DNA of 64,000 nt from a virus (taxonomy: Duplodnaviria > Caudoviricetes): the IMG/VR virus record IMGVR_UViG_3300042539_001740; one strand, written 5' to 3'. A program made the translations under genes and the position numbers. Below, one piece after another: positions 2,011 through 24,077 of this stretch; position 1 is the first letter of the stretch; every line of letters starts with the position of its first letter. The notes below the pieces were generated by a model. That model was not told where the DNA came from and did no database searches. It was given only the letters and a program-made list of their open reading frames with translations.

Positions 2011-2175
2011 ATGAAAACGAAGAATAAAATCAATATAACCCTGAATGCCATTGGTAATGGTGCTCGATTGGTATATTTAGAGAAGAACCCCCACGGTTTT
2101 TCAGCTGTGACTAAAGTTCATAAGAGTTCAAAACAATATTCTCGTAAAAACAAAAAACTGGTCTATGAAATATAA
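2011..2175 (+). CDS. 54-aa basic peptide, ArfA-like candidate (not in ORF track)
   Basis: MKTKNKINITLNAIGNGARLVYLEKNPHGFSAVTKVHKSSKQYSRKNKKLVYEI; has its own promoter and overlaps the next gene. Confidence 0.6.
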   Translation: MKTKNKINITLNAIGNGARLVYLEKNPHGFSAVTKVHKSSKQYSRKNKKLVYEI

Positions 2176-2587
2176 AATCTATTTGGATGATGAAAGAACA
2201 CCTAATGACAAGGATTGGATTGTTGTTAGAAACTATGGGGCTTTCATCAAAAAAATCAACGAACTTGGTTTGGACAATGTTGATGTTATTTCATTTGACC
2301 ACGATTTGGGTGATACTGCGGTTGAGGAATATTTTAGAAATGTAATTAAAAAAGGAATATTGGATTATGATAACATCGAAGAAAAAACTGGATATGATGC
2401 AGCAAAATGGTTGGTTGGTCACTATATGGACAACTTTACAAGTCCTTTCCCTCAAATATATGTTCACTCCGCCAATCCTGTTGGAGCTGCTAATATTGTT
2501 AATTATATTAATGGTTTCTTAAAACATTTGGATAAGGAACAAACCGCAAAATTGAAAGTTCATCCGTTCACCATTCAAGAAAAATAA
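2165..2587 (+). CDS. Cyclic-phosphate-processing receiver-domain protein
   Basis: IYLDDERTP, ISFDHDLG, KTGYDAAKWL and VHSANPVGA motifs. Confidence 0.75.
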   Translation: MKYKIYLDDERTPNDKDWIVVRNYGAFIKKINELGLDNVDVISFDHDLGDTAVEEYFRNVIKKGILDYDNIEEKTGYDAAKWLVGHYMDNFTSPFPQIYVHSANPVGAANIVNYINGFLKHLDKEQTAKLKVHPFTIQEK

Positions 2588-2589
2588 TA

Positions 2590-3081
2590 ATGAATATCTT
2601 CTTTTTAGATTATGATGTCATCAAGTGTGCAAGATATCATTGTGATAAACATTGTGTTAAACAACTATTGGAGGCGGCTCAACTTTTGTGTGGTGCTCAC
2701 CATGTTACAAACTCAGGTTTAGATATTCCATATAAATTATCACACAAAAACCACCCCTGTTCAATATGGGTTAGAGAGTCATTATCTAACTATTATTACC
2801 TATGTGAATTGGGGTTGGAGTTGTGTAAAGAATACACTTATCGTTATGGTAAAAGACATAAATCACAAGATGTTATTGAATGGTGTGTGATGAATCCAAT
2901 TAATGTAAAAGATAAGGATTTCACTGAACCACCCAAAGCAATGCCTGATGAATATAAGGTTAAGGATGTAATTCAATCATATAGAAACTATTATATTGGT
3001 GCAAAAAAAGATTTTGTTTCTTGGAAAAATCGTGATGTTCCCTCTTGGTTTTGTGAAGAAAATAACTTACAATTAGTATAA
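2590..3081 (+). CDS. Pyrimidine-dimer DNA glycosylase (DenV/endonuclease V-like family)
   Basis: MNIFFLD...HCDKHCVKQLLEAAQLL...HKNHPCSIWVRES...YTYRYGKRHKS. Confidence 0.8.
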   Translation: MNIFFLDYDVIKCARYHCDKHCVKQLLEAAQLLCGAHHVTNSGLDIPYKLSHKNHPCSIWVRESLSNYYYLCELGLELCKEYTYRYGKRHKSQDVIEWCVMNPINVKDKDFTEPPKAMPDEYKVKDVIQSYRNYYIGAKKDFVSWKNRDVPSWFCEENNLQLV

Positions 3082-3087
3082 AATATT

Positions 3088-3348
3088 ATGACAGAAGAAA
3101 AATACAATGAGATAAAAAAACTCAAAGAAACAATAGTTAATTTGGAGTTCAAGTTATCAACAATCAATAACTTAATTGAGTCAAAAAAATTGGAAATGGA
3201 GATAAAGGGGACATCAACTTGTAACTTTAAAATCAATCGTTTTATCAAGTTAGGTGGTGATGATTTTATCAAATCAATCTTAGATAGTGAAAGAAAAACA
3301 ACGGAATATCAACTCTCAAAAATGAGAGAAGATTTCGATAAATTATAA
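3088..3348 (+). CDS. Hypothetical coiled-coil protein
   Basis: ORF track; operon packing. Confidence 0.6.
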   Translation: MTEEKYNEIKKLKETIVNLEFKLSTINNLIESKKLEMEIKGTSTCNFKINRFIKLGGDDFIKSILDSERKTTEYQLSKMREDFDKL

Positions 3349-3353
3349 TATTT

Positions 3354-3443
3354 ATGGATACCTACAACATTATTATGGCAAGCATTCTTACATCCCTTTT
3401 TATAATTTTAGCTTTACGAATTAGAAATAACAGAAAAGCATGA
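3354..3443 (+). CDS. 29-aa membrane peptide (not in ORF track)
   Basis: MDTYNIIMASILTSLFIILALRIRNNRKA; its TGA overlaps ATG 3440. Confidence 0.5.
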   Translation: MDTYNIIMASILTSLFIILALRIRNNRKA

Positions 3444-3709
3444 TACACAACTTAACAAAGTTTCAGCTCGAAGTTTGGAATAAAATCAAACCACACCTCA
3501 AAGAGGAATATGGTACTCAAATCAATTTCGATGATGAACTACAGATAAACTTTAGTTTTGGGAACGGAAAGATTGTCTTAGATGTTTTTCCACAAGATGA
3601 AGTATTGTTATTTATACATTTCGAAAATGAGGGGTTTGAAAAACATTTTTTTAATAGTAGTAATTTAGATAGTTTAATAGAAATTTTAAAGAAAAATGAA
3701 TATCAATGA
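3440..3709 (+). CDS. Hypothetical protein
   Basis: ORF track; overlaps its neighbours. Confidence 0.6.
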   Translation: MIHNLTKFQLEVWNKIKPHLKEEYGTQINFDDELQINFSFGNGKIVLDVFPQDEVLLFIHFENEGFEKHFFNSSNLDSLIEILKKNEYQ

Positions 3710-4001
3710 AGCATATGACTTTCTAATGAAGAAAGTTGATGAACTAAAAGAACAAGGAATAGAAGTATTAATCAAAGATTCTATAGTAACACCTGACACA
3801 AAAGAAAAATATAACAGACCAGATAGATTACCCTCAACAGAATGGAAAACTATTTGTTTAGGTCTTCAGTGTGAAGGTGACTTAGGTAAAGTTCGTGAAA
3901 TTGAACATTTATGTAGTATGGTTGGTATCTATTTCGACACAGGTTATGGTGGTGGTCAAAGAGAGTGGGAAATAGATTGGTCTTTCAGAGTTTCCCAATA
4001 A
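3696..4001 (+). CDS. Hypothetical protein
   Basis: ORF track; GIYFDTGYGGGQREWEIDWSF motif. Confidence 0.65.
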   Translation: MNINEAYDFLMKKVDELKEQGIEVLIKDSIVTPDTKEKYNRPDRLPSTEWKTICLGLQCEGDLGKVREIEHLCSMVGIYFDTGYGGGQREWEIDWSFRVSQ

Positions 4002-4026
4002 AATTTAAAAAAAAACCCATTTTGAT

Positions 4027-4057
4027 TTTGAAATTAGAATGGGGTTTTCTATTTTTG
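4027..4057 (+). promoter_or_regulatory. Bacteroidota housekeeping-sigma promoter inside an imperfect inverted repeat
   Basis: TTTG-N19-TATTTTTG, an exact consensus match; overlaps the hairpin AAACCCATTTTGATTT/AAATTAGAATGGGGTTT. Confidence 0.6.
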
Positions 4058-4080
4058 TAAGACAATAAAACAATATCACA

Positions 4081-4560
4081 ATGGGAACAAATTACTACAG
4101 AATACCAAGTGTCCAAGAAATGGAACAAAAAAAAGCTAAGTTAATTGAGAATGTTACCAACTTAGTAGTCTCACCATATATGATTGAACGTAAGTTCACA
4201 AATTTTGAGGTAGGATTTGATAGATATTCTGCTTGGGACATATTCACTATGGGGACTTCAATACATTTGGGTAAAAGAAGTAGTGGTTGGAAATTCTTAT
4301 GGAATTTTCACGATAACAATTATTACTCAAACAAAGAGGAATTATTTAACTTTATACGAACTGGTAGAATAGTTGATGAATATGGTGAAGAAATGGATGT
4401 TGAGGAGTTCATCAAAATGGCCTTAGAATGGGGACAACCTGATGGATTGGATGGGGAAACATATCGTAGACAACATCCTCGTCAATACTCCCACGATTTT
4501 GAAAAAAAAGAACAATATATTGATGGTTTAAGAGTTGCACCTTATACTGATTTTTCATAA
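4081..4560 (+). CDS. Conserved phage hypothetical protein
   Basis: MGTNYY...IHLGKRSSGWKFLWN...IVDEYGE...DFS pattern recalled from phage proteins. Confidence 0.7.
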   Translation: MGTNYYRIPSVQEMEQKKAKLIENVTNLVVSPYMIERKFTNFEVGFDRYSAWDIFTMGTSIHLGKRSSGWKFLWNFHDNNYYSNKEELFNFIRTGRIVDEYGEEMDVEEFIKMALEWGQPDGLDGETYRRQHPRQYSHDFEKKEQYIDGLRVAPYTDFS

Positions 4561-4580
4561 CAATTAAAATAATTATTACT

Positions 4581-4886
4581 ATGGCTAAGAGATTATCATA
4601 CGAACAAAAAAAAGAACAATTACTAATAGACATCATCAACAAGATGTTCGAATTTGCTGGTCATAATGTTACATTCGAAGATATCAAAGATAGAAAAGAT
4701 GATTGGTATGCTCAATGGACAATAACTGAAGACCAATATGACCAATGGCAAAAGTGGGGTGTGAAAGAAGTTAAGAAAAAGATGAAGATGACCGAAGATT
4801 TTGCTAAGAGACAAATGGCAATGATTGGTTTGAATTATGGTTTGAAATTCGCAGACCATAATATTTATCAAGAAAAAGAATTATGA
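4581..4886 (+). CDS. Hypothetical protein
   Basis: ORF track. Confidence 0.65.
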   Translation: MAKRLSYEQKKEQLLIDIINKMFEFAGHNVTFEDIKDRKDDWYAQWTITEDQYDQWQKWGVKEVKKKMKMTEDFAKRQMAMIGLNYGLKFADHNIYQEKEL

Positions 4887-4960
4887 AAAAATTTATCTGT
4901 AATTTCATTTCCAAAATAACATTCGGTAAAGTTTGTTTTGGGTGGTGTAAATTAAAATAG
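4883..4960 (+). CDS. 25-aa Cys-containing amphipathic peptide (not in ORF track)
   Basis: MKKFICNFISKITFGKVCFGWCKLK; ATGA overlap upstream, next ATG 3 nt after its stop. Confidence 0.5.
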   Translation: MKKFICNFISKITFGKVCFGWCKLK

Positions 4961-4962
4961 AA

Positions 4963-5404: not shown

Positions 5405-5453
5405 GTTAAAGGTCAATATTTATTATTTATAATAACTAAAAATATTTAACCTT

Positions 5454-6059: not shown

Positions 6060-6063
6060 ATTT

Positions 6064-6708
6064 ATGGTAAAATTTTATCCACCAACAACAGATGCTAATT
6101 TAGATACAAGTAAATTCAAAAGATGGACTTATACCCCTTATAGAAATGGTGTTGATGTTTACGCCCCTTTTGATGGAAAGATTTATGGTGTTGATAAGAA
6201 GAAGGGACTAGTTAAAATTAAACACTTTTTTTCAAAAGACACTTATACTACTAAATTTTATGAATTAGGTGACATATATAAATCTAATGGGGATACTGTA
6301 AGAATGGGGGAAATTATAGGTAAAACAAGTTCAAGTCCTTTCAGTATGGAAATTGTAGATTCAGGTAATTTGGAACAATTGATAACACCATTCTTCACTG
6401 GTAGTGTAAATCTTAGAACAGAACCTAAACAAGAAAAAAATGTATCAAAAGAAAAGGAAATCCAAATTAAAGACAAAGAAACTTCAGATAAATTCGAAAA
6501 ACAAAAAGAAAAAAATAAGAAAGAAAAATATGTACCTGGTTTAAAAACTTATGAACCTGGTAAACTTTCTTTACTAGATGTTGGTTTAGTCCCCTTTCAT
6601 TTATTAGGAATGGCTGGTACTTATCTTCAAAATAGAATGAAAAGGAAAAAAGCAGAAAAAGAAAATTTAGAAGAGGAAGTGCAAAGAATTAAACAACTTA
6701 TAAAATAA
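6064..6708 (+). CDS. Degenerate M23 peptidase-domain protein with C-terminal LEEEVQRIKQLIK motif
   Basis: GVDVYAPFDG...VKIKH...GDTVRMGEIIG fits the M23 fold, but the HxxxD and HxH Zn ligands are replaced. Confidence 0.6.
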   Translation: MVKFYPPTTDANLDTSKFKRWTYTPYRNGVDVYAPFDGKIYGVDKKKGLVKIKHFFSKDTYTTKFYELGDIYKSNGDTVRMGEIIGKTSSSPFSMEIVDSGNLEQLITPFFTGSVNLRTEPKQEKNVSKEKEIQIKDKETSDKFEKQKEKNKKEKYVPGLKTYEPGKLSLLDVGLVPFHLLGMAGTYLQNRMKRKKAEKENLEEEVQRIKQLIK

Positions 6709-7057: not shown

Positions 7058-7414
7058 ATGAATTGGAAACACACCTTGATTATTGTGGTGTCTATTTTGT
7101 TTATTGGAATGGGTTTGGGTTATTTGATAAGTTATAACGCAAAGGAAACTAGAAATCTCCACCAACAACTAATAGATGCTGAAAGAAAAGCTATTGATTC
7201 TTTATATAAAGAATTGGAAGTTATGAAAACTGAAAGGGAAACTATGGAATCCCAACTAAATGCACTTACTACTGGTATTAGAATTAGTGAGTCAAACTTA
7301 TCAACAAAAATAAACCAACTAAAAATTCAAAACAATGTTAAGATTGAAGCTATTACTAATAGTACTAATGATGAGCTGCTCGATGGTTTACGCACAAGAT
7401 TTGGCAAAAAGTAA
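7058..7414 (+). CDS. TM + coiled-coil protein, i-spanin-like
   Basis: N-terminal TM, long helical periplasmic region; overlaps the next gene by 80 nt. Confidence 0.5.
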   Translation: MNWKHTLIIVVSILFIGMGLGYLISYNAKETRNLHQQLIDAERKAIDSLYKELEVMKTERETMESQLNALTTGIRISESNLSTKINQLKIQNNVKIEAITNSTNDELLDGLRTRFGKK

Positions 7415-7829
7415 CAAAGATTCCGTAAGTCCTAAAATAGATTTAGTTGTTATAGATGGAGATACACTTTTTACAATCAATAGAAAGGTTGCAATACAAA
7501 TAGCAATTGAACATGATTCCTTAGAAATCGTAACAAGTAAATTGAAAGAATGTAATGGTGTATTAGATTATTGTCTTGAGGTTAAAAATCAGTACAAAAC
7601 TGCATTAGACCAATCCCAAGGTGTGAGTGATATGTTGAGAAAAGAAATTGAAAAGAAGGACAAAATTATTGGTAGTTACAAAAAGATTGATGAATCTCAA
7701 CAAGCTATGTACAAAGAACTGAATACTGAATTTAAGAAAGCTAAGAACAGAAACAAGTGGTTAACAGGATTAAGTATTGGTGGGGTTACAGTAGGATTCA
7801 CTTCAATTATCCTTTTACTTCTTAAGTAA
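7335..7829 (+). CDS. Signal peptide + coiled coil + C-terminal TM protein, spanin-like
   Basis: Signal (MMSC lipobox or YA-Q SPI site), coiled coil, hydrophobic C-terminus; overlapping arrangement typical of spanin pairs. Confidence 0.45.
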   Translation: MLRLKLLLIVLMMSCSMVYAQDLAKSNKDSVSPKIDLVVIDGDTLFTINRKVAIQIAIEHDSLEIVTSKLKECNGVLDYCLEVKNQYKTALDQSQGVSDMLRKEIEKKDKIIGSYKKIDESQQAMYKELNTEFKKAKNRNKWLTGLSIGGVTVGFTSIILLLLK

Positions 7830-7881
7830 TCATATTATATTTTTTATGTCTTAGGACATAAAGATTAAATAATTTATTATT

Positions 7882-8250
7882 ATGGAAATTACTTATTTTG
7901 CTTTGGGTATGCTTTCGATGGTTGCTTTAACATTTGTTGGAGTTGTTGTTTGGGGTTTGTTCAGGGTCAGTAAAATTGAAAGACAAATTGCTGTCATAAA
8001 ACAAAACGATAGATTCGAGTTTGACAACGTTCAACGACAATTTGAAAATGTTTATCGTGGTATCGATAGTCAAAGGGATGATTACAGACACGAATTTGAA
8101 TCCGTGTTTCGTAGGTTTGAAACAATCGAGGAGAATTCAAGGTTGAATACCGATAACTTGGTGAGAATGATGAATGATAGATATGATGATTCAATTCGTT
8201 ACACAGACAAAAGAATTGATAAGTCATTAAATCAAAAAGAAGTATTATAA
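7882..8250 (+). CDS. Membrane-anchored coiled-coil protein
   Basis: N-terminal TM then a helical repeat-like region. Confidence 0.65.
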   Translation: MEITYFALGMLSMVALTFVGVVVWGLFRVSKIERQIAVIKQNDRFEFDNVQRQFENVYRGIDSQRDDYRHEFESVFRRFETIEENSRLNTDNLVRMMNDRYDDSIRYTDKRIDKSLNQKEVL

Positions 8251-8254: not shown

Positions 8255-8287
8255 AAACCCCTCCTAAAAAGAGGGGTTTATTTTTTT
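8255..8287. terminator. Terminator between 7882 gene and tmRNA
   Basis: AAACCCCTC-CTAAAAA-GAGGGGTTT followed by a T run. Confidence 0.75.
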
Positions 8288-8293
8288 CTGCGG

Positions 8294-8672
8294 TGGAGGT
8301 ATAGGGAGTCGAACCCTTTCCTGTCCATCTTAACTATTAAGGACTACATGCTTAGGACAACATTATTCGCAGTGCTCCGAGCTATTTGATTTTAATTACT
8401 ACCAAAACCAACAAAATCAGCCAATTCATTTTTAGGGATGAGAATTAGTTAGACAACCCTTCAGTGCTCCTGTTCCTGAGTTAATGCACCCCGACTCGAA
8501 AGTAATATCCTATTGACTAGGCTACTACCGCTTCTTCAGCACGGATTAAACCTACTGCAGAAAGTTTGTTGATAACGTTGCCGTGTATCGTTTCAAACCA
8601 GTTTAACGGACTTAGTTCAGGTCCGGCATGCCCCGAATAACTAACAACGTCAGTCGATTCCAGATTACCCCC
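8294..8672 (-). ncRNA. ssrA: tmRNA; tag ORF 8582-8517 encodes (A)GNVINKLSAVGLIRAEEAVVA
   Basis: 5' GGGGGTAATCTGGAATCGAC; 3' GGGTTCGACTCCC-TA-TACCTCC-A. Acceptor stem has the G3:U70 alanine determinant; internal ORF starts GGC and ends GCC-TAG. Confidence 0.93.
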
Positions 8673-8750
8673 ATATTTTCAATTAACTTTATACAAGGAT
8701 AAATATAAATAATGAATAAACCAAGGTATTTATAAAGAAAAATATTTTTT

Positions 8751-10145
8751 ATGACACCGAAGGAATTAGCTGATGAAGAATCAGAGATTAAATTTGAGGA
8801 TGATAAGGTTTTATTTATCAAAGTGAAAGGGTATGACGCTATGGACTACTACGCTTCTGAAAAATTGAAGAGAGAATATAATAAGTTCAATAGATATGGT
8901 GATGTCTATTTAATCGTTGATAAAGATGGTGAGAATAGTTATGTATTGAATCAAGTAAGAAATGGCTATACTGATGTGTTGGATTTTGATGGGATGGTAA
9001 ATAACTTTATGGATGTAATTGAGGATTATCCACAATTAGAATCGAAACTTGTTGAGTTCATTAAACCTGAGAACCCTTATGAAATGTTGTTATTAATTAA
9101 GGCGGGTAAAAAATATGATAAATGGGATATGAGAAGCATTGATGAATCTTTAAATGGGATGACACTTAACGAAAAGAATCCTGGTAAGAGTATGATTCAA
9201 CTTATGTTTGATGCTGATGAATATATATCTTTTTTTGACTATAAAGAAGGTGAATGGGATGCAAGGATATTGGGGTCTATATTTGGAAATAGTTATTATG
9301 GTAGTTCTTTTGATTTGATACCTAGTGATATGACTTGGGACGATTGGAAAGAAGGTTATATGTTTGGTTCATTTGATGATAAAAACAAAAAAAAGTTGGA
9401 TGATATTGTTTCATTTCTAATTCCTGGTGTAAAAGATTTAAAAGACAAAGATGAGGATAAATATAATAAGAGTGTTGTTCAGTTCTTAGATACCAATTTT
9501 CCGGTGGTTGGTGAAAGGATTGCTGATGAGTACAATTCATTAAGAAACGAATCCGCAGTAGAAAAAATCAAAGAAATTGGTATAAAAGATATTGCGGATG
9601 TATTCCAACAATATGGGGTTTTCAGAAAATCAGGTGTTTTTACAAATTATGTGACAACCGTAAATATCCTATTAAGTTTATATAAAAAAACTCAAAGTAA
9701 ACAAGCAACAATTGTTGAACTATTTAAGGAATTGGGTGAAGAAATGGACTTAGATATTGGTTATTATAATGAAGTGGCTATGGATAGTTGGGATTTTGAT
9801 TTTGAACAATTTAATGATGTTGTTGGTGACCAATTGGATACAATATTAGAAGAAATAGAAGATGAACCTGAAAAGTTTGAGGCCTTCAAAAACTATGCCG
9901 ATGTATTGAAAAAACTTAATGATATGGGTTACCAAATTGGTGGTCAATATAAATTACCAAACACGGAAAATTCATTCAGAATTGACGAAATTAGAAAAGA
10001 CGACTCAAAAGTAGTAATAGTTCATTGGAATAAATCATCAGGAAGGGGAGAAAGAAGAAGTTACACAATAGAAGAGTTTGTTAATTATTTACATTCACCA
10101 GAACTTTTTGAAAGTTTAGTAAAAAGATTGAAAAGAATTATGTAA
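8751..10145 (+). CDS. Large acidic hypothetical protein, probably late/virion
   Basis: 464-aa ORF; TATTTAT upstream; C-terminal LFESLVKRLKRIM. Confidence 0.75.
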   Translation: MTPKELADEESEIKFEDDKVLFIKVKGYDAMDYYASEKLKREYNKFNRYGDVYLIVDKDGENSYVLNQVRNGYTDVLDFDGMVNNFMDVIEDYPQLESKLVEFIKPENPYEMLLLIKAGKKYDKWDMRSIDESLNGMTLNEKNPGKSMIQLMFDADEYISFFDYKEGEWDARILGSIFGNSYYGSSFDLIPSDMTWDDWKEGYMFGSFDDKNKKKLDDIVSFLIPGVKDLKDKDEDKYNKSVVQFLDTNFPVVGERIADEYNSLRNESAVEKIKEIGIKDIADVFQQYGVFRKSGVFTNYVTTVNILLSLYKKTQSKQATIVELFKELGEEMDLDIGYYNEVAMDSWDFDFEQFNDVVGDQLDTILEEIEDEPEKFEAFKNYADVLKKLNDMGYQIGGQYKLPNTENSFRIDEIRKDDSKVVIVHWNKSSGRGERRSYTIEEFVNYLHSPELFESLVKRLKRIM

Positions 10146-10154: not shown

Positions 10155-10946
10155 ATGGAACAAAATATCAATTTTTTAAAAAGGGTTTTATCTGTCCCCA
10201 CAAAAACATATAAAGAGGATTTAATGATTCAATTTTTAACCGAATGGTTGGTTGAAAATAATATTCCTTATTTTGTTGATAAGATGGGAAATGTTTATGC
10301 AACCAAACAAACTGATGAGGTTGAATATTTTCCTTGTGTCGTTGCCCACACAGATACCGTTCACGAGCTCGATACAATCAATATTCGTGAGATGATGTTA
10401 CCCAATGACCAAAACGAATTAAAGATGGCCTTAAAGGCTTTTAATGACCAAGGATTACCCACTGGAATTGGGGGTGATGACAAATGTGGTGTTTATGTTT
10501 GTTTGGAGTTATTAAAACAATTACCAAATGTCAAAGCAGCTTTCTTTGTATCGGAAGAAACAGGATGTCATGGGTCAAAAAAAGCCGATAAAGATTTCTT
10601 CTCAAATGTTGGTTATGTTATGCAATTTGATGCTCCTGGTAATTGGATGGTCAGTGAGTATTGTATGGGTGTCAAACTATTTGATAAGGGTAGTGATTTC
10701 TTCGATAAATGTGACAAAGTATTAACGGAGGGTTTTAATAGTCGAAACAAATACCAATCCCACCCTTATACTGATGTTTACGCACTTAAACAACTATTTG
10801 ATTTTTCCTGTATAAACTTTGCTGTTGGTTATTACAACTATCACACAGAACACGAATATGTAATTGTTGATGATGTATATAATACTTTGGATATTGCTAA
10901 GAAAATGATATCTGAGTTGGGTACAAAAAAATACACTAAAAAATAA
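10155..10946 (+). CDS. M28/M20-clan Zn peptidase
   Basis: VAHTDTVH, GGDDKCG, SEETGC, FD and YHT metal-ligand motifs. Confidence 0.8.
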   Translation: MEQNINFLKRVLSVPTKTYKEDLMIQFLTEWLVENNIPYFVDKMGNVYATKQTDEVEYFPCVVAHTDTVHELDTINIREMMLPNDQNELKMALKAFNDQGLPTGIGGDDKCGVYVCLELLKQLPNVKAAFFVSEETGCHGSKKADKDFFSNVGYVMQFDAPGNWMVSEYCMGVKLFDKGSDFFDKCDKVLTEGFNSRNKYQSHPYTDVYALKQLFDFSCINFAVGYYNYHTEHEYVIVDDVYNTLDIAKKMISELGTKKYTKK

Positions 10947-11659: not shown

Positions 11660-11661
11660 TA

Positions 11662-11689
11662 AAAAAAGGGACTATTCAGTCCCTTTTTT
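11662..11689. terminator. Bidirectional terminator
   Basis: AAAAAAGGGACT-ATTC-AGTCCCTTTTTT between convergent genes. Confidence 0.85.
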
Positions 11690-13702
11690 CTTTTTGGTTT
11701 TTTTGGTTTCCTTTTCTTTGAAAATTATACTTTCATTATCTACGGTTAGAATGTATTGTTCATTTTCTATAATTTTACCATTTAACACCTCTTCTGATAC
11801 AAAATCTTCAATTTTATCTTGAATTGCTCTTTTGATTGGTCTGGCACCATATGTTTCATCAAAACCAACTTTAGAAATTAATTCTAAAACTGAATCATCA
11901 CAAGAAATATTATAATTCAAACCTTCTAATCTTTTAATTAGTTTATCGACCTCTAATTTAACAATTTGTTTTACTTCGTCTTCCTTCAATGTATTAAAAA
12001 CAATAATTTCATCAATACGATTAAGGAATTCAGGGGCAAAGAATTTCTGCAATTCCTTTTTTAACATATCCCTTTTATGTTCCTCTTCAATGTAAACATT
12101 CGCGTTTGTTTTGAATCCAACACCAGTACCAAAATCTTGTAGTTTTTTGACACCAAGGTTTGAGGTCATAATAATGATACAATTCTTGAAATTAATTTTT
12201 CTTCCAAGACCATCAGTAAGATGTCCATCGTCTAAAACTTGGAGTAACGTTGCAAACACGTCTTTATTTGCTTTCTCAATTTCATCGAATAAAATAACTG
12301 AATATGGTTTATTTTTCACTTGTTCGGTAAGTTGTCCCCCTTCATCGTAACCAACGTAACCTGGAGGTGAACCAATTAATCTTGATATTGAATGTTTTTC
12401 TTGGAATTCTGACATATCAACACGGATTAGATTTTCTTCACTACCAAATATTTCCTTAGCTAATTGTTTGGCTAAATAAGTTTTACCCACACCTGTTGAG
12501 CCTAAGAAAATAAATGAACCAATTGGTTTATTAGGGTCTTTAATCCCCAATCTATTTCTCCTTATTGCTTTTGCGATTTTAAGAACAGCTTCTGATTGTC
12601 CAATAACTTTCGAAGCCAAATTGTTATCAAGAGATGAAAGTTTATTAGTTTCATCAGAATCCATTTTTGAGACAGGAATCTTAGTCATATTAGATACAAC
12701 TTCATAAACTAGTTCCACACTAACTTCTTTCTTTTTGTTTAATAAATCAAATTCGAATTTCTTTTTTTCCTCTTCTAACTTATCTAATATTTTTGTTTCC
12801 TTATCTCTTAAATCTGCAGCCAGTTCATAGTTTTGACTTTTTACAACATCTATTTTTTGTTTTTTTATTTCTTGGGCTTGTGTTTTCAAATCCTCCACAA
12901 TTTGGGGCATTTTAATTTCAACCTGACTTCTTGCTCCGACTTCATCAATAATGTCAAATGCCTTATCCGGAAATTCTCTATCTGTAATATATCTTTCTGC
13001 TAAATCAACACAAAGTTTAAGTACATCATCACTATAATTTACTTTATGGTAATTTTCATATTTGTCTTTGACATTTAATAAAATTTGTAATGTTTCATCT
13101 TTAGTTGATGGGTCAACAATTACTTTTTGGAATCGTCTTTCTAATGCCCCATCTTTTTCAAAATTCTTTCTATATTCATCCAAAGTGGTTGCACCAATAC
13201 ATTGGATTTCCCCTCTTGCTAAGGCTGGTTTAAATATGTTAGAGGCATCCAATGAACCTGATGAATTACCTGCACCAACAATTTGATGGATTTCATCGAT
13301 AAACAAAATGATATTTGGGGCGGCTTGTAGTTCTTCTATAATCACCTTCATTCTTTCCTCAAATTGTCCTCTATATTTTGTACCTGCAACAATTGAGGTC
13401 ATATCTAAGGACATAATTCTTTTATCCATTAGATTTCTTGGACAATCTCCATTCAATATTTTCAAGGCCAAACCTTCTACTATAGCGGTTTTTCCACAAC
13501 CTGGTTCACCGATTATAATTGGATTATTTTTCTTTCTTCTTGATAATATTTGGGCTATTCTTGTTATTTCTCTATCTCTACCTACAACAGGGTCTAATTT
13601 TCCCTCCTCCGCAAGTTTAACCAAATCTTTTGCAAAATTATTTAATACTGGTGTGTCGCCCTTACCTTTACTTGAGTAATCTCCATCTTTAGATTCTATC
13701 AT
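11672..13702 (-). CDS. clpC: ClpC-type AAA+ unfoldase lacking the N-terminal Clp-repeat domain (likely start ATG 13702)
   Basis: Two AAA modules (GEPGCGKT, FIDEIH; GSTGVGKT, LFDEIEK), UVR-type M domain (NYELAADLRD) and a VGF ClpP-docking loop. Confidence 0.92.
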   Translation of the reverse strand: MIESKDGDYSSKGKGDTPVLNNFAKDLVKLAEEGKLDPVVGRDREITRIAQILSRRKKNNPIIIGEPGCGKTAIVEGLALKILNGDCPRNLMDKRIMSLDMTSIVAGTKYRGQFEERMKVIIEELQAAPNIILFIDEIHQIVGAGNSSGSLDASNIFKPALARGEIQCIGATTLDEYRKNFEKDGALERRFQKVIVDPSTKDETLQILLNVKDKYENYHKVNYSDDVLKLCVDLAERYITDREFPDKAFDIIDEVGARSQVEIKMPQIVEDLKTQAQEIKKQKIDVVKSQNYELAADLRDKETKILDKLEEEKKKFEFDLLNKKKEVSVELVYEVVSNMTKIPVSKMDSDETNKLSSLDNNLASKVIGQSEAVLKIAKAIRRNRLGIKDPNKPIGSFIFLGSTGVGKTYLAKQLAKEIFGSEENLIRVDMSEFQEKHSISRLIGSPPGYVGYDEGGQLTEQVKNKPYSVILFDEIEKANKDVFATLLQVLDDGHLTDGLGRKINFKNCIIIMTSNLGVKKLQDFGTGVGFKTNANVYIEEEHKRDMLKKELQKFFAPEFLNRIDEIIVFNTLKEDEVKQIVKLEVDKLIKRLEGLNYNISCDDSVLELISKVGFDETYGARPIKRAIQDKIEDFVSEEVLNGKIIENEQYILTVDNESIIFKEKETKKTKKKKGTE

Positions 13703-13755
13703 AACTTTTTTATTTAATAATAATGTTTTATTTGGTATTTTCAACAATCTTGTAA

Positions 13756-13768
13756 TGACAAAATGTCA
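13756..13768. promoter_or_regulatory. Perfect palindrome TGACA-AAA-TGTCA between divergent clpC and UVR gene
   Basis: Read directly in the intergenic region. Confidence 0.4.
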
Positions 13769-13868
13769 GTATTTTTAATTACAAAGTGACATTATTGATT
13801 ATCTTAATTAATTGGTATATAATTCGTACAATACTAAGTAAAATAAACTTAATAACAAACAATTTATT

Positions 13869-14306
13869 ATGGATAACGATTTTTATAAAAAATTTGAGAA
13901 AATTTTGGATGAGATTTTCGGTGGAAAACATAAACCAACAATTCCATTTGAAAGTTTCTTGGAGAATTTAAAGTATGATGACATTGATACTGATTTTAGT
14001 AAACTAAGAAATTCAGTTAGAAAGACAAAGGATGGAATTATTACTTCGATTCATTTTGTGATTAACCCTAACACAAAATGGTCAGCATCTAATTCAAATA
14101 CAAAGAGGGATTTGGAAACTAAATTAAACGAATGTATCCAAAACCAAGATTTTGAACAGGCGGCTAAAATCAGAGACGAAATAAAAGAACTTCAGAAAAA
14201 CAAAGGGAAAATTGAAACTCTCAAAAAAGAAATGGAAATAGCTATTGAAAAACAAGATTTCGAAAGGGCTATAGAAATCAGAGATGAATTAAAAAAAATT
14301 AATTAA
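13869..14306 (+). CDS. Tandem UVR (UvrB/C-motif) protein, candidate ClpC adaptor
   Basis: Two motifs: LNECIQNQDFEQAAKIRDEI and MEIAIEKQDFERAIEIRDEL. Confidence 0.85.
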   Translation: MDNDFYKKFEKILDEIFGGKHKPTIPFESFLENLKYDDIDTDFSKLRNSVRKTKDGIITSIHFVINPNTKWSASNSNTKRDLETKLNECIQNQDFEQAAKIRDEIKELQKNKGKIETLKKEMEIAIEKQDFERAIEIRDELKKIN

Positions 14307-14349: not shown

Positions 14350-14592
14350 ATGGCAATATTAAAAGAAGAAATAGTAGGTACAAAAATTATAAATGAAGTA
14401 CAATCAAGTAATTTAGTAAGAAGTGAGTATGATACAGCAACTAAAAAAATGATTGTTGAATTCAAAAATGGAACTAAATATGAATATGATGAAGTACCGC
14501 ACACAATTTACACTAGATTCAGGTTATCGGAATCCCAAGGTAAGTTTTTTAGTTCCACCATCGCTAAAAATTACAAGTACAAAAAGGTTTGA
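14350..14592 (+). CDS. KTSC-domain protein
   Basis: SSNLVRSEYD...MIVEFKNGTKYEYDEVP..IY..F..SESQGKFF...I...Y. Confidence 0.85.
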   Translation: MAILKEEIVGTKIINEVQSSNLVRSEYDTATKKMIVEFKNGTKYEYDEVPHTIYTRFRLSESQGKFFSSTIAKNYKYKKV

Positions 14593-14627
14593 TGTATATT
14601 TCCAATGTATGTGAATATTTATCAGAC

Positions 14628-15389
14628 ATGGATAATATTGAAAATATTTTAAGTAGTTTCGAGGTACAAGACCAGTTGTATCCAAAAATATGGTATCTAC
14701 CAAATGAAAAACATATGGGTGACCCTGAAGGTCAGAAATATAAAATAAACCCAAAGGTTAGAAAAAATTTACTTGAGATAACTTACCAATTTATTGAAAG
14801 TTTGGACATTGACGTTGTTATTGAAGACATTATTGTAGTTGGTTCAATAGCTAACTATAATTGGTCTAAGTTCTCAGACATTGACGTGCACATATTAGTT
14901 GATTACAAACAATTTTCCAATGAACTTAAAGATATGTACGTTGAATATTTTGATTTGAAAAAAGTAATTTTCAATCAAAAAAGAGATGTAAAAATGTTTG
15001 GTTTTGATGTTGAGTTTTTCATTGAGGATACTGATATGCAAGGTATCAGTGGAGGTGTTTATTCGTTACTGAATGATGAATGGTTAAAAACACCCAAAAG
15101 GTTTGATTTTAAAGTGGATTTGAAAGATGTAAAAAATAAATCTAAACAATGGATGAGAACTATTGATTCTTCGATAAAAAATATGGAAGACCAAGATATT
15201 GACACAATCGAAAAAACACTAAATCAATTTAAAAATAAACTTAAAAAGTTTAGATTAAGTGGTTTAAAAGGGGGTGGTGAAATGAGCTTGGAAAATTTGG
15301 TTTTTAAAGTATTACGAAGAAATGGGTATATTGACAAATTATATAAAACGCCTTTAAAACTTATAGATAATAAACTTTCTATTGAGTAA
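14628..15389 (+). CDS. Pol-beta superfamily nucleotidyltransferase (likely start ATG 14628)
   Basis: VVGSIANYNWSKFSDIDVH (GS..DxD) plus a third acidic residue in DVEFF; TATTTAT at 14616. Confidence 0.8.
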   Translation: MDNIENILSSFEVQDQLYPKIWYLPNEKHMGDPEGQKYKINPKVRKNLLEITYQFIESLDIDVVIEDIIVVGSIANYNWSKFSDIDVHILVDYKQFSNELKDMYVEYFDLKKVIFNQKRDVKMFGFDVEFFIEDTDMQGISGGVYSLLNDEWLKTPKRFDFKVDLKDVKNKSKQWMRTIDSSIKNMEDQDIDTIEKTLNQFKNKLKKFRLSGLKGGGEMSLENLVFKVLRRNGYIDKLYKTPLKLIDNKLSIE

Positions 15390-19350: not shown

Positions 19351-19372
19351 ATATTTATATAAAATACAATTT

Positions 19373-21136
19373 ATGAGTTTAACAAAAGAACAAGTAATGA
19401 TAGAATATGTAAGATGTATGAAAGATACACCTTACGCATTAAGAACATACCTTGAAACATATGACAACACAGTTTCAAAATATGTCCCACTAGAGTTGTT
19501 TCCTGACCAAATATCATTATTAAATGACTACGAGGAATACAATGAAAATATTGCCTTGAAGTACAGACAAGCAGGAGTATCAACAGTTACGGCAGCATGG
19601 ATATCTAAAAGAATAGCGTTTGCTAAAAAAACAAAACCTGAAAAGATTTTGATTATCGCAAATAAACTAGATACTTCTATGGAAATGGCCAATAAAATCA
19701 GGATGTTTATTGGACAATGGCCATCTTGGGTTGGTATTGATTTTTCAAGTGATAAAAATTCACAAAAACACTATAAAACAAATAATGGTTGTGAGGTAAA
19801 AGCTGTTGCTACCTCTAAGGATGCCCTACGTGGTTTCACACCAACAATTCTTGTATTTGATGAAGCTGCGTTCATTGATGCAGATTCTGACTTCTGGGCA
19901 GCTTGTATGGCCTCACTTTCTACTGGTGGTAAAGTTATTGTGGTGTCAACACCAAATGGTTATGACCCAATTTATTATGAAATATATAATCAGGCACATA
20001 GAAATATGAATGATTTCAAAATATCTGAAATGTTTTGGTACAGAGACCCAAGATATACAAAAGATTTATTTTTAGTTAAAACTCAAGATACTATTCACTA
20101 CCTTCTAAACAAAGAAGAATATCCTAAAGATGAAATTATTAGTTGGGAAACTATACCATTTGAAGAAAGAAATTTTGAGGAACTCAAGTTGATAATGGAT
20201 TCAGGTTATAAACCTTGTTCTTCTTGGTTTGAAGGTATGGTTAAAAAATTGAAATATGATAAAAGAAAAGTATCACAAGAGTTAGAGTGTAACTTCCTTG
20301 GTTCAGGTGATAACGTTTTTGATTCACTATTGATGCAAAGGGTAAAAGAGAATATGATTAGAGAACCCCAAAATAAAATGATTGGTAACTCTTTATGGAT
20401 TTGGAAAGAACCTGTGATGGGTCACAAATATGTGATGGGTGTGGATGTGAGTAGAGGGGATAGTGAGGACTTTAGTTCATTTCAAATTATTGACTTTGAT
20501 GAAAGAGAACAAGTTGCGGAATATGTGGGTAAACTTCCACCTGATACGATGGCAGAAATTTGTTATAAGTGGGGTAATATGTATAATTGTTTCATTGTAA
20601 TAGATATAACAGGAGGAATGGGTGTTTCAACATCTAGAAAACTTCAAGAAATGGGTTACAAAAATTTATATGTTGATGGTATTGATTTAGCCAATAAGTG
20701 GAAATATGACCCAAAGGCTTTAGAAAAGATACCGGGTTTAAATTTCAACAACAAACGTGTACAAATTATAGCATCATTTGAGGAAGCTATGAGACATCAG
20801 TTTAAAATTTATAGTTTACGATTATTCAATGAAATGAATACATTCGTATATGTAAATGGAAGACCAGACCATCAAAAGGGTCAACACGATGATTTAATTA
20901 TGTCAATTGCAATGGCAACTTATGTTGCGGAATCATCATTCAGTAGTTTAGAAAAGGTGACCGAACAAACTAAAGCTATGTTAGAATCTTGGTCTGTTAC
21001 TAACAATGAAACTGCAGCTAAACAGATTGATTTCAATCCCGTGATACCTTTTGGAACTGAGAGAATTAATCAAAGAAATCAAAACGCAAGTAAGGAGGAC
21101 TATATGAAATACTCTTGGTTATTCGGAGGTAGATAA
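19373..21136 (+). CDS. gp17: Terminase large subunit (T4 gp17-like)
   Basis: LKYRQAGVST Walker A variant, ILVFDEAAF Walker B, VSTPNG, QELECNFLG, nuclease MGVDVS and HDDLIMS. Confidence 0.93.
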   Translation: MSLTKEQVMIEYVRCMKDTPYALRTYLETYDNTVSKYVPLELFPDQISLLNDYEEYNENIALKYRQAGVSTVTAAWISKRIAFAKKTKPEKILIIANKLDTSMEMANKIRMFIGQWPSWVGIDFSSDKNSQKHYKTNNGCEVKAVATSKDALRGFTPTILVFDEAAFIDADSDFWAACMASLSTGGKVIVVSTPNGYDPIYYEIYNQAHRNMNDFKISEMFWYRDPRYTKDLFLVKTQDTIHYLLNKEEYPKDEIISWETIPFEERNFEELKLIMDSGYKPCSSWFEGMVKKLKYDKRKVSQELECNFLGSGDNVFDSLLMQRVKENMIREPQNKMIGNSLWIWKEPVMGHKYVMGVDVSRGDSEDFSSFQIIDFDEREQVAEYVGKLPPDTMAEICYKWGNMYNCFIVIDITGGMGVSTSRKLQEMGYKNLYVDGIDLANKWKYDPKALEKIPGLNFNNKRVQIIASFEEAMRHQFKIYSLRLFNEMNTFVYVNGRPDHQKGQHDDLIMSIAMATYVAESSFSSLEKVTEQTKAMLESWSVTNNETAAKQIDFNPVIPFGTERINQRNQNASKEDYMKYSWLFGGR

Positions 21137-21155
21137 TATTTATAAAAAAAAGATT

Positions 21156-21320
21156 ATGGGATTTGTAAACAGAAAAAAAAGTGGAGATAAGAAATTCAAT
21201 GGGTCAAAATTGAATGTTCCAGGTCAGGGTATATCAACTACAAAAATTAGTCCTCCTGATAAAGTCCCATTCAAAAACAATAATACGAATAGTACAACTA
21301 ATAATAATACATCAAATTAG
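21156..21320 (+). CDS. 54-aa basic/Asn-rich peptide (not in ORF track)
   Basis: MGFVNRKKSGDKKFNGSKLNVPGQG...; TATTTAT at 21137. Confidence 0.55.
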   Translation: MGFVNRKKSGDKKFNGSKLNVPGQGISTTKISPPDKVPFKNNNTNSTTNNNTSN

Positions 21321-21363
21321 GTAGAACTATTTAAAACAATAGAAATATATTTAAAATTTCTTT

Positions 21364-23151
21364 ATGGAAAATAATCAAAATAATTTAACAGTTTGGCAAA
21401 GATTAACACAAGCATTCGGTCCTAATGCTTTACTTAATCAAGATTACCCAACTTATAGTTTCGATAGAAAGGAGTTATTAAAAACTAAATCAAAACAAGA
21501 ATTTGATAAGGAATTACTCCAAGCACAACAAACTTACTACTTAGCAAATCAATGGACTAAGATTGAAAGTAACTTATACACTCAGGCTGTATATTACGAA
21601 CCAACTAGATTGGCTTCGTTTTATGATTATGAATCTATGGAATATACACCCGAAATATCTGCTGCGTTAGACATTTATGGTGAGGAATCTACTACGGTTG
21701 ACCAGAATGGGTATATGTTACAAATATACTCAGAATCAAAACGTATCAAGGGTATTTTAATAGATTTATTTTTGAATGTTTTAGATTTAAATACAAATCT
21801 ACCAATGTGGACTAGAAATACTTGTAAGTATGGTGATAACTTTGTCTATCTTAAACTTGACCCTGAAAAAGGAGTTGTTGGTTGTATGCAATTACCAAAT
21901 ATCGAAATTGAACGTTTGGAAAGAGGTATGCCAGCGCAAGCAAGTAGACAAAACGTAGAAGAGCCAGCTGAAAACAAAGGACTAAGATTCAAGTGGAAAG
22001 CTAAAGATATGGAATTTAATTCTTGGGAAATAGCACACTTTAGATTATTAGGTGATGATAGAAAGTTACCATATGGTACATCAATGTTAGAAAAGGCAAG
22101 GCGTATTTGGAAACAACTATTGTTATCTGAAGATGCGATGTTAATTTATAGAACATCACGTGCACCTGAAAGAAGGGTGTTCAAAGTATTCGTTGGTAAT
22201 ATGGATGATAAAGATGTTGAACCATATGTACAACGTGTTGCAAACAAGTTCAAAAGAAGTCAGGTTGTTGATTCTCAAACAGGTAATGTGGATATGAGAT
22301 TTAATCAAATGGCTGTTGACCAAGATTATTTCATTCCTGTACGTGATGCCGCTGCGGCAAGTCCGATTGATACATTACCTGGTGGTCAAAACTTAGGTGA
22401 GATTGCTGATATTGAATACATCCAAAAGAAACTACTTACTGCTTTACGTGTACCTAAAGCGTTTTTAGGTTTTGAAGAACCAGTTGGTGATGGTAAAAAT
22501 TTATCATTAATTGATATTCGTTTTGCAAGAACAATTAACAGAATCCAAAAATCTATGGTTGCTGAGTTAAATAAGATTGCGATTGTACATTTATTCCTTT
22601 TAGGTTTTGAAGATGAATTATCCAATTTTACTTTAAGTTTAACAAACCCATCGAGTCAAGCAGATTTATTAAAAATTGACATATGGAAAGAGAAGGTCGC
22701 ATTATATAAGGAATGTGTTACATCAATTGAGGGTATTGCACCAACTTCTGTTTCATGGGCTAAGAAACACGTTATGGGATTCTCTGATGAGGAAATCAAA
22801 CTTGATTTACAACAACAGAGAATTGAAAAAGCTGTAGGTGCTGAGCTTACAAATACCGCAACAATTATAACAAATACTGGTGTGTTTGATAATGTTGATA
22901 AATTATATACTCAAACAACAGGTACAACATCAGGTGGGGCACCACCACCTCCAGGAGGAGCTGAAGGGGGAACTCCACCACCAGCAGGTGGTCCTGAAGG
23001 TATGGGTGAAACATTTAACAATAGAGATAATTTAAACATATTGTTGGAAAACGAAGGGATATTTGAGGAAATGAGTTTTATTGATTTGTCCAAAGCCAAA
23101 AATTATTTGGGGGAAATGGAGAGTCAACTAAGTAAACTCCTAAAAGATTAA
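21364..23151 (+). CDS. gp20: Portal vertex protein (T4 gp20-like)
   Basis: YRTSRAPERRVFKVFVGNM, DYFIPVR, IDTLPGGQNLGEIADIEY, ALRVP. Confidence 0.95.
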   Translation: MENNQNNLTVWQRLTQAFGPNALLNQDYPTYSFDRKELLKTKSKQEFDKELLQAQQTYYLANQWTKIESNLYTQAVYYEPTRLASFYDYESMEYTPEISAALDIYGEESTTVDQNGYMLQIYSESKRIKGILIDLFLNVLDLNTNLPMWTRNTCKYGDNFVYLKLDPEKGVVGCMQLPNIEIERLERGMPAQASRQNVEEPAENKGLRFKWKAKDMEFNSWEIAHFRLLGDDRKLPYGTSMLEKARRIWKQLLLSEDAMLIYRTSRAPERRVFKVFVGNMDDKDVEPYVQRVANKFKRSQVVDSQTGNVDMRFNQMAVDQDYFIPVRDAAAASPIDTLPGGQNLGEIADIEYIQKKLLTALRVPKAFLGFEEPVGDGKNLSLIDIRFARTINRIQKSMVAELNKIAIVHLFLLGFEDELSNFTLSLTNPSSQADLLKIDIWKEKVALYKECVTSIEGIAPTSVSWAKKHVMGFSDEEIKLDLQQQRIEKAVGAELTNTATIITNTGVFDNVDKLYTQTTGTTSGGAPPPPGGAEGGTPPPAGGPEGMGETFNNRDNLNILLENEGIFEEMSFIDLSKAKNYLGEMESQLSKLLKD

Positions 23152-23172
23152 TATTTATTAATAAAAAAAATT

Positions 23173-23889
23173 ATGAAATTTGGTATAATTAAATCGAAAA
23201 TTGATAAGATTTTGTTGGAATCATTTTCCAATAAAAATGAATTTAAATCTGAACTTAAAAATTTTCAAAATACAATTTTAGAAAATAAAAATCTTACTAA
23301 ATTATTTTGGATTTATGATGAATTAAAAAATAAATCAAACATAGATAGTACGATTGTTAACGACTATGTTAATGAAACTATTAACCAATACAAAAATATT
23401 GTGAGCAAAATTAACCCAAAGAAATTGAGGAAACTTGAACTATGGGTTGAGGGTGTTGATGTTGAAAACGAATATACTGACATTGACAATTTGTTTTCTG
23501 ATAGTGTTCTAACTATTGAACAAAAAATTAATAGTAGAAAGAAAATAACAGAATCCCTTAAAAGAAAGGTTAAAAAAGAAAAAGAATCAATTAATTTACC
23601 AATATCAACAATGGTTAATATAGCAAATAAAACAATCAAAAACTACGTACAACAATTAGACGAAAACACTAAGGGTAAGTTGTTGAGATTTCTTTCTTCA
23701 GATGTTACTGAAATGGAATCTAAGTACAAAGTAGTTAAAGAAAGTGTTTTAAATAAACTAAGTAACATCAAACAAAATTCAGAAGAAGAAGTAGTCACCA
23801 AAATTGATGAAACAATTTCGAAGATTACAAATGAAAAGTTTGATAAATTGAATTTATTTAGATTGGAGGAATTGGATAATAGTATCTAA
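23173..23889 (+). CDS. Helical head-region hypothetical protein
   Basis: ORF after portal; TATTTAT at 23152. Confidence 0.7.
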   Translation: MKFGIIKSKIDKILLESFSNKNEFKSELKNFQNTILENKNLTKLFWIYDELKNKSNIDSTIVNDYVNETINQYKNIVSKINPKKLRKLELWVEGVDVENEYTDIDNLFSDSVLTIEQKINSRKKITESLKRKVKKEKESINLPISTMVNIANKTIKNYVQQLDENTKGKLLRFLSSDVTEMESKYKVVKESVLNKLSNIKQNSEEEVVTKIDETISKITNEKFDKLNLFRLEELDNSI

Positions 23890-24077
23890 TCTATTTTATT
23901 TTTGATTTTTTGAACATATTTTGCTTTGTTCAATTCAGTTCTTCTTTTGACTGAATTTTTAACAAATTCCTTTCTGTTTTTTAACTCAGTCATCAATTTG
24001 GTCTTGATAACTTTACTTTTAAAAAGTTTCAAGGCCTTTTCTATTGGTGTTTTATTATCGACTTTGATTATTAGCAT
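23886..24077 (-). CDS. rpsU: Ribosomal protein bS21 (start likely ATG 24077)
   Basis: MLIIKVD...IEKALKLFKSKV.KTKLMTELKNRKEFVKNSVKRR; position among head genes matches known bS21 phages. Confidence 0.9.
   Translation of the reverse strand: MLIIKVDNKTPIEKALKLFKSKVIKTKLMTELKNRKEFVKNSVKRRTELNKAKYVQKIKNKID

Follow-up and report, generated by a model that had tools for sequence, protein, structure and literature searches.

A gene for transfer-messenger RNA (tmRNA) and a gene for a ClpC-type Hsp100 ATPase were found as a fixed pair in a clade of large phages; other genes of the same region are separable from this pair, and outside the clade the distribution of all these genes is patchy. The pair was analyzed in a window of 64,000 nucleotides, corresponding to bases 121525-185524 (minus strand) of the 194,498-bp linear IMG/VR record IMGVR_UViG_3300042539_001740; positions given below are those of this window unless another genome is named. 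Large phages are known for scattered translation genes. In the initial annotation, nine parts of the window (tRNA-Leu genes, an ArfA-like peptide, a cyclic-phosphate receiver protein, tmRNA, ClpC, a UVR-motif partner of ClpC, a KTSC protein, a nucleotidyltransferase, and the ribosomal protein bS21) were joined into a phage-run circuit for the rescue of stalled ribosomes. Eight of these nine parts are real, whereas the ArfA-like identity of the peptide failed in all comparisons. The explanation favored here, with a probability of about 55%, is that the region carries host-derived helpers that work side by side on translation and the turnover of proteins and are kept together by inheritance, rather than forming one circuit.

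The record was estimated by CheckV to be 66% complete, which implies a genome of ~295 kb, and its GC content is 31.3%. Because gene order, genome size, GC content, and the location of bS21 on the reverse strand among head genes all match those reported by Chen 2022 (PMC9723584), the window is assigned by these sequence features to the published clade of bS21 phages of freshwater Bacteroidota. In a T4-like phage of ~300 kb, this DNA makes up the conserved left flank of the head/packaging block.

The tmRNA gene and its tag

The tmRNA gene is located at 8291-8672 on the reverse strand and encodes a one-piece molecule. It matches the Rfam model RF00023 over its full length (model positions 1-374) with 95.4 bits at a cut-off of 47; ARAGORN fails to call it in the window. 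The acceptor stem is tRNA-Ala-like, the 5' GGGGGTA pairing with the 3' TACCTCC and thus forming a G3:U70 pair. The 3' end is encoded as A-CCG, with an incomplete CCA, and a strong intrinsic terminator hairpin follows the gene at ~8255-8285. The possibility that this tmRNA is a remnant of a phage attachment site (attP) was ruled out by its full length, its distinct tag, and its conservation in a lytic T4-like lineage.

The tag reading frame of the tmRNA (8517-8582, reverse strand) follows pseudoknot 1 and consists of 21 codons, GNVINKLSAVGLIRAEEAVVA, and a stop codon; the resume codon, GGC, was assigned by the Rfam alignment. Among the relatives this frame is kept through synonymous changes and 3-nt indels, and ARAGORN calls the same frame in two of them. 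All 80 pattern-anchored IMG/VR loci have an open frame of 21-22 codons with an Ala end, represented by 25 distinct versions. The end of the tag is hydrophobic (V-x-A or V-A). In the last third of the tag the sequence varies, with more non-synonymous than synonymous changes, while the length and the hydrophobic end are constant. The tags of the five Bacteroidota genomes with the closest ClpC proteins are different: they have 9 codons (GENNYALAA, GENNYAMAA, GEGNYALAA, GDNRFALAA, and DNTSYRLAA) and end with LAA or MAA, whereas the phage tag has 21-22 codons and a VA end. Since both length and ending are unlike those of the host tags, the phage tag is not a copy of a host tag.

Relatives of the window were collected in two ways. 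Set A includes 13 portal-anchored relatives, with ~30 kb of each stitched together; by the portal protein, IMG/VR contains more than 598 related contigs, with 78-94% identity for the 80 best matches. For set B, a degenerate tag-coding pattern was used, which yielded at least 117 IMG/VR contigs; 12 large records, including three near-complete genomes of 295-322 kb, were searched whole. The two sets comprise 25 related records, all belonging to one clade. In the search for set A, tmRNA was found in 15 of 22 long contigs, and the other seven break off within 12 kb of the portal gene on its upstream side, short of the tmRNA site; all 15 informative contigs therefore have it. In set B, tmRNA was found by Rfam in 11 of the 12 records.

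The gene for SmpB was found in four of the 12 set B records. It is located 0.5-0.9 kb from the tmRNA gene in three of them (G029, G032, and G036) and far away from it in the fourth (G028). These proteins are genuine, scoring 154 bits on the SmpB equivalog model (cut-off 130). The corresponding part of the window (7335-8250) contains two unrelated open reading frames (ORFs) for 164 and 122 aa, neither of which has a family match. Neither SmpB nor ClpP, RtcB, an RF-1 domain, Rnl1, or Rnl2 was found in the window's own record, which is 66% complete. For ClpP and SmpB this absence is uninformative because of the incompleteness: in the relatives ClpP lies 18-77 kb beyond tmRNA and would here fall off the contig. 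The contigs of the five nearest relatives also end short of the ClpP region. Judging from these predicted genes, the phage lineage owns a trans-translation system.

In the literature searched on phage tmRNA tags, the phrase "phage-encoded tmRNA" was not found. The text and supplement text of Chen 2022 (PMC9723584) do not mention tmRNA, whereas it was found here in every relative covering the site. The failure of ARAGORN to call most tmRNAs of the clade may be the reason for this gap, and tmRNA is thus a useful addition to the annotation of these phages.

ClpC and the other protease parts

The ClpC gene is located at 11672-13747 on the reverse strand, with a probable start at ATG 13702 (676 aa). 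The initial annotation had named ClpC with a UVR partner, and comparison with Pfam and PDB bears this out: the protein is a ClpC-type class-I Hsp100, and a protein with two UVR motifs is encoded next to it. Its Pfam domains are AAA, AAA_lid_9, AAA_2, and ClpB_D2-small, and a UVR motif is found in the middle domain. The best PDB matches are the ClpC proteins of Staphylococcus aureus and Bacillus subtilis (~1e-222). Both sets of Walker A and B motifs and the pore loops are kept, and a G-V-G-F loop aligns with the F-A-G-F ClpP-docking loop of S. aureus ClpC. The N-domain is absent, because the alignment begins only at residue 155 of S. aureus ClpC; the Clp_N domain was not found by Pfam in the window protein, and there are in-frame stops upstream of the ORF. 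The closest cellular homologs, from Bacteroidota (56-60% identity), are of full length and have the N-domain (e.g., 848 aa).

ClpC was found in 25 of the 25 relatives: in all 13 of set A (76-93% identity, always on the reverse strand) and in all 12 of set B. In the relatives it lies on the same strand as tmRNA at a distance of 2-4.3 kb, although the intervening genes turn over. In one of them (G034, a 123-kb IMG/VR record; L354:384-4171), the ClpC gene is interrupted close to its first Walker A motif, after approximately residue 70. About 1.65 kb long, this interruption holds an ORF for 400 aa without a Pfam match and may represent an intron, intein, or homing element.

The UVR protein (13869-14306, forward strand, 145 aa) is encoded divergently from ClpC and matches PF02151 in two stretches (2e-22). 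It was found in three of the 13 set A and six of the 12 set B relatives (9/25). In all six located set B relatives, including the most distant one (G028), its gene adjoins that of ClpC in divergent orientation. The protein is not McsA: it scores 40.3 bits at a cut-off of 210, through the UVR tail alone, and its N-terminal half has no Cys motifs.

A small zinc exopeptidase of the M20/M28/M42 type (10155-10946, forward strand) is encoded between tmRNA and ClpC. It matches the Pfam M42, M28, and M20 families and phrog_4191 (2e-42) and contains only a PepT-like catalytic domain; weak PepT matches include the motifs GGDDKCG, SEETGCHG, and HTEHE. This gene was found in all 13 set A relatives (67-99% identity). 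ClpP was found in nine of the 12 set B records and in all three near-complete genomes, ~19-80 kb from ClpC. The ClpP proteins of the relatives are genuine as well, scoring 242 bits on true ClpP models (below the equivalog cut-off of 361) versus 62 bits on the head-maturation model. By these matches, Clp protease parts also belong to the phage lineage.

Set C includes five more distant phages. In LR756508 (484 kb), tmRNA is found at 92 kb, the portal gene at 146-149 kb, bS21 at 170 kb, and ClpC at 455 kb. The tmRNA of LR756508.1 (L229, 92434-92880) apparently encodes a tag of ~36 residues ending with KPAAV; ARAGORN takes a different short frame. LR745206 and LR756502 have ClpC (58-59% identical) and bS21 and no tmRNA. 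In Microcystis phage Mel-JY01, bS21 is located just past the prohead protease gene and tmRNA is absent; both tmRNA and bS21 are missing from Flavobacterium phage immuto.

Neighboring genes and promoter signals

bS21 is encoded at 23886-24086 on the reverse strand, with a probable ATG at 24077. It matches PF01165 (3e-12) and scores above both curated cut-offs (46.6 bits versus 27 in Pfam and 33.3 versus 28.95 for TIGR00030). It was found in 12/12 relatives in set A and 10/12 in set B, and is absent from the 100%-complete 309-kb genome of G028, which keeps tmRNA, ClpC, SmpB, and ClpP. In the window, tmRNA, ClpC, and bS21 span 15.8 kb of a ~300-kb genome. Three random positions would lie that close with a chance of ~0.8%, a post hoc estimate for a block that is inherited as a unit. 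The head/packaging genes around bS21 encode a T4-type large terminase (TerL, 19373-21136), the portal protein (21364-23151), and a T4-type S77 prohead protease (24667-25389).

The KTSC-domain protein (14350-14592, forward strand, 80 aa; PF13619, 6e-16) was found in all 13 set A relatives, as was the nucleotidyltransferase encoded next to it (14589-15389, forward strand, 266 aa). With 20.1 bits, the nucleotidyltransferase falls just under the PF01909 cut-off of 21, and it matches phrog_36119 (4e-38); it has 1640 homologs. Its assignment in the initial annotation is nevertheless upheld by the G85-S86...D97-x-D99 motif, invariant in the 26 homologs compared, and by an AlphaFold2 model (predicted local distance difference test, pLDDT, 81) with a Pol-beta-type core and a C-terminal three-helix bundle. 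By motif and modeled fold, the protein is thus of the Pol-beta type, and the fold matches give no substrate. A Foldseek search returned weak generic matches to CD-NTases (CdnE) and to the aminoglycoside adenylyltransferase AAD(9), with E-values of 7e-4 to 2e-3 and a TM-score of ~0.2. The match to the CCA-adding enzyme of Archaeoglobus fulgidus was also weak (E 0.05 over 153 columns), and in a wider structure search the matches were filled by the three-helix bundle.

The protein with a cyclic-phosphate-processing receiver (cREC) domain is encoded at 2165-2587 on the forward strand (140 aa; PF20274, 5e-24, 85.2 bits versus a cut-off of 27; phrog_1479, 1e-29). Like tmRNA and bS21, it had been named in the initial annotation, and all three score above the respective Pfam or Rfam cut-offs. 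cREC was found in 10/13 set A and 11/12 set B relatives, and its position varies between genomes. Any function of cREC is so far predicted (Iyer 2021, PMC7824862); for jumbo phages, a part in the repair of RNA or the rescue of ribosomes has been suggested for cRec and KTSC (PMC7824862). In the window, its neighbors are a 54-aa peptide and a phrog_624 protein; no operonic link with an RNA ligase or an NAD/ADP-ribose enzyme, on which its predicted role is based, was found there, nor any member of the RtcB, Rnl1, or Rnl2 families in the record. The arm of RNA-end repair included in the proposed circuit is without a ligase in this record. A T4 Rnl1-like RNA ligase was found in all five set B relatives tested, and RtcB in none of these five. 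In three of the relatives the ligase and cREC are 2-4 kb apart (at 268.3 and 271.1 kb in G029, 138.8 and 142.5 kb in G031, and 76.3 and 80.2 kb in G032), which agrees with the published cRec-ligase link. The phrog_624 protein, annotated as "DNA binding protein" and weakly matching Pyr_excise, is encoded 3' of cREC at 2590-3081, and a peptidase M23-like protein is encoded at 6064-6708.

The 54-aa basic peptide (2011-2175, forward strand), the ORF previously described as ArfA-like, overlaps the start of cREC by 11 nt. It has 42 small homologs, all of them unnamed viral or metagenome proteins, with the invariant motifs NPHG and K-x-H-K...Y-x-R-K. In set A it was found in three of 13 relatives, all of one subclade and always accompanied by cREC. 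By this conservation, the ORF is a real small gene. Similarity to ArfA was sought in several ways, none of which supported it. There was no match in Pfam (E<=5), NCBIfam (E<=1), or PHROG; BLASTP gave no alignment with E. coli ArfA (from NC_000913.3); and the only hhalign match was not significant (probability 0.35%, E 0.17), placing the expected K-x-Y-x-R-K segment of the peptide opposite KGSYMRK of ArfA. The AlphaFold2 model is of low confidence (pLDDT 60) and shows a pair of short helices plus a basic tail that is disordered. In the ESM Atlas, a cluster in which 10% of members have DUF7230 is a lead only. ArfA recruits RF2 to stalled ribosomes, where it occupies the vacant mRNA channel. The peptide and E. 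coli ArfA are alike in being small and basic with a predicted disordered C-terminal tail; they differ in that there is no significant similarity between them and that the phage gene overlaps and travels with cREC. A role of the peptide in ribosome rescue would be a guess from a short motif, and no rescue role can be assigned to it, to cREC, to KTSC, or to the nucleotidyltransferase.

Two tRNA-Leu genes, called by ARAGORN, are located on the forward strand at 982-1067 (anticodon UAA; Rfam tRNA, 44.6 bits) and 1074-1151 (anticodon UAG; 55.5 bits). They are genuine, as the initial annotation had it, and lie at 982-1151, outside the 2011-24077 segment in which it had placed them. Both belong to the last members of a run of at least 15 tRNA genes that extends upstream of window position 1 (184-194 kb of the genome) to the contig end and includes two genes for tRNA-Tyr and two for tRNA-Met. 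Since the genes run to the contig end, the tRNA set may be larger.

A -7 box of the Bacteroidota type, TAnnTTTG, was found upstream of tmRNA and is perfect in seven of 11 relatives. At a conserved position, the box is also present upstream of ClpC and bS21 in most relatives. In the window, the boxes are found in the regions 8673-8730 (tmRNA), 13748-13868 (ClpC), and 24087-24171 (bS21). They suggest transcription of these three genes by unmodified host RNA polymerase, and the shared promoter type is a weak link among them. A T4-type late promoter for tmRNA, TATAAATA, was considered and rejected: the motif is TATTTATA on the forward strand and belongs to the divergent ORF at 8751-10145. TATTTATA is found 14-20 nt before the ATG of many forward-strand genes, with forward-strand sites in the window at 5424, 8727, 10968, 15413, 19352, 21137, 24644, and 25699. 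On both strands this octamer occurs 25 times, against 12.5 expected, and a count of 25 was reached in 2 of 100 shuffles. The motif possibly serves as a phage promoter or marks start sites.

Possible joint functions and known systems

In the favored reading of parallel helpers, the block would contain several host-derived genes on the reverse strand, each with a promoter box of the Bacteroidota type. The analysis demonstrates what the parts are, how conserved they are, and how they are arranged in synteny; every functional step given next is inferred. The phage tmRNA would be charged by the host alanyl-tRNA synthetase and delivered by host SmpB or, in some relatives, by phage SmpB. It would release ribosomes stalled on broken mRNAs and add the phage-specific tag of 21 residues. 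The N-domain-less ClpC would dock via its VGF-type loop on ClpP, which is self-encoded in complete relatives, and would unfold proteins for degradation; the adjacent small exopeptidase possibly trims the resulting peptides. bS21 would join host 30S subunits and favor phage messages late in infection, and the tRNAs would supplement decoding. This reading is preferred to a single circuit because bS21 is lost in G028, cREC is mobile, the peptide and the UVR protein occur in some relatives only, and ClpP is located ~19-80 kb from ClpC. Moreover, in the five distant phages these genes are single or hundreds of kb apart, and the region is not transcribed as one operon, bS21 co-evolving with its own neighbor gene (Chen 2022, PMC9723584). 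The conservation of the TAnnTTTG boxes upstream of tmRNA, ClpC, and bS21 also argues for it. Several points weigh on the other side. tmRNA and ClpC were never found apart in the 25 records and remain on the same strand within 2-4.3 kb despite the intervening turnover, and the conserved tag differs from host tags and is double their length. A dedicated link accounts for this fixed pairing and distinct tag better than mere chance does. It must also be noted that, as all records come from a single clade, the counts do not represent independent events.

Such a dedicated link would mean that the private tag of 21-22 residues is read directly at the ClpC pore and the protein is passed to ClpP, the exopeptidase recycling the peptides to amino acids and the UVR protein, where present, tuning ClpC via its UVR-containing middle domain. 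N-domain-less ClpA recognizes ssrA tags directly. We hold this explanation to be less probable than the favored one, yet a serious alternative to it. It is consistent with the presence of tmRNA, the peptidase, and ClpC in all 13 set A relatives and of the tmRNA-ClpC pair, on the same strand at 2-4.3 kb, in 11-12 of 12 more. The Walker motifs, pore loops, and G-V-G-F loop retained by ClpC agree with it, as do ClpP in three of three near-complete genomes, SmpB beside tmRNA in G029, G032, and G036, and the UVR gene adjoining ClpC in six located relatives, including the most divergent genome. The hydrophobic end of the tag and its length, kept in 80 of 80 loci, point the same way, being unlike the GENNYALAA-type host tags. 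However, the last third of the tag varies with an excess of non-synonymous changes, and ClpP is not clustered with ClpC. In addition, LR745206 and LR756502 have ClpC without tmRNA, LR756508 has the two 360 kb apart, and adjacency within one clade is possibly plain inheritance. A stricter form, in which the long tag is not read by host ClpXP and is recognized only by phage ClpC with ClpP and the exopeptidase, appears rather doubtful. If true, products of ribosomes stalled in infection would be recycled to amino acids for the phage, in no competition with the host ssrA pathway and unnoticed by it.

It is unlikely that ClpC and the peptidase instead serve virion morphogenesis, for example by removing or remodeling scaffold or prohead core proteins, with tmRNA as an unrelated neighbor; the location of ClpC in the head/packaging block would then be due to this role. 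ClpC, the peptidase, KTSC, and the nucleotidyltransferase do share a conserved block with TerL, the portal, and the prohead protease, and this block is expressed late in infection (Chen 2022, PMC9723584). Nevertheless, ClpC is encoded on the other strand and has a promoter box of the host type, not the signal of the forward-strand genes; the phage already encodes a T4-type S77 prohead protease; and huge phages have this ClpC at a distance from their head genes, as in LR756508 with ClpC at 455 kb and the portal at 146-149 kb. Least probable among these explanations is the full circuit of nine parts, combining ribosome rescue, RNA-end mending, and clearance of truncated products against abortive-infection RNases. 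All its genes lie within 24 kb, for two of them (cRec and KTSC) such roles are proposed in PMC7824862, and the Rnl1-like ligase is close to cREC in G029, G031, and G032. Against this, the peptide has no detectable kinship with ArfA and is present in three of 13 relatives; neither an RNA ligase nor RtcB nor a release-factor domain was found in the record; cREC has no fixed position, and one complete relative does without bS21; the fold comparisons of the nucleotidyltransferase yielded no link to CCA-adding or RNA-repair enzymes; and the genes are patchy in the outgroup phages, a distribution named with the circuit among the refuting results. Co-occurrence across relatives, the check suggested with the circuit itself, gave a tmRNA-ClpC pair fixed in the clade and an independent or patchy distribution for four of the nine parts. 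What stands of the phage-run rescue is that the lineage owns tmRNA, SmpB in some relatives, ClpC, and ClpP; the coupling of all nine parts is not supported, given the separable bS21, the floating cREC, and the patchy peptide and UVR protein.

The nine-part proposal is thus narrowed to two or three parts, and bS21, cREC, KTSC, the nucleotidyltransferase, and the peptide become separate subjects. In a clade that is abundant in freshwater, the fixed pair of ClpC and a tmRNA with a conserved non-host tag is a candidate for a virus-owned pathway of tagging and degradation.

The phages of Chen 2022 (PMC9723584) resemble the one studied here in several respects: bS21 is on the reverse strand among TerL, the portal, the prohead protease, and the major capsid protein; KTSC corresponds to fam46 (position -10) and NTP_transf_2 to fam14 (position -9); ClpC corresponds to fam772 in the tables, where a "Clp protease" is also annotated; and the genomes are of ~300 kb with ~31% GC and many tRNAs. 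The same kinds of translation genes, namely tRNAs, tmRNA, SmpB, and S21, were reported in phages of more than 200 kb and read as redirecting host translation (Al-Shayeb 2020, PMC7162821). In those huge phages the genes are scattered, whereas here tmRNA, ClpC, and bS21 lie within 16 kb. With bacterial trans-translation, the phage system shares the one-piece tmRNA, G3:U70, the usual start of the tag frame, the Ala end, and, in some relatives, the adjacent SmpB; the same genomes likewise encode ClpP and a class-I Clp ATPase that has a ClpP loop. In bacteria, however, the ssrA tag is read by ClpXP or ClpAP, while the ATPase near the phage tmRNA is an N-domain-less ClpC, not ClpX or ClpA. With the ClpC-McsA/McsB/MecA system of Firmicutes, the phage proteins share the UVR middle domain, the ClpP-docking loop, and an adjacent gene with UVR motifs, like McsA. 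They differ in that the phage ClpC has no N-domain, which in Firmicutes binds MecA, McsB, and phospho-arginine, and in that the phage partner has two UVR motifs and no zinc-finger region.

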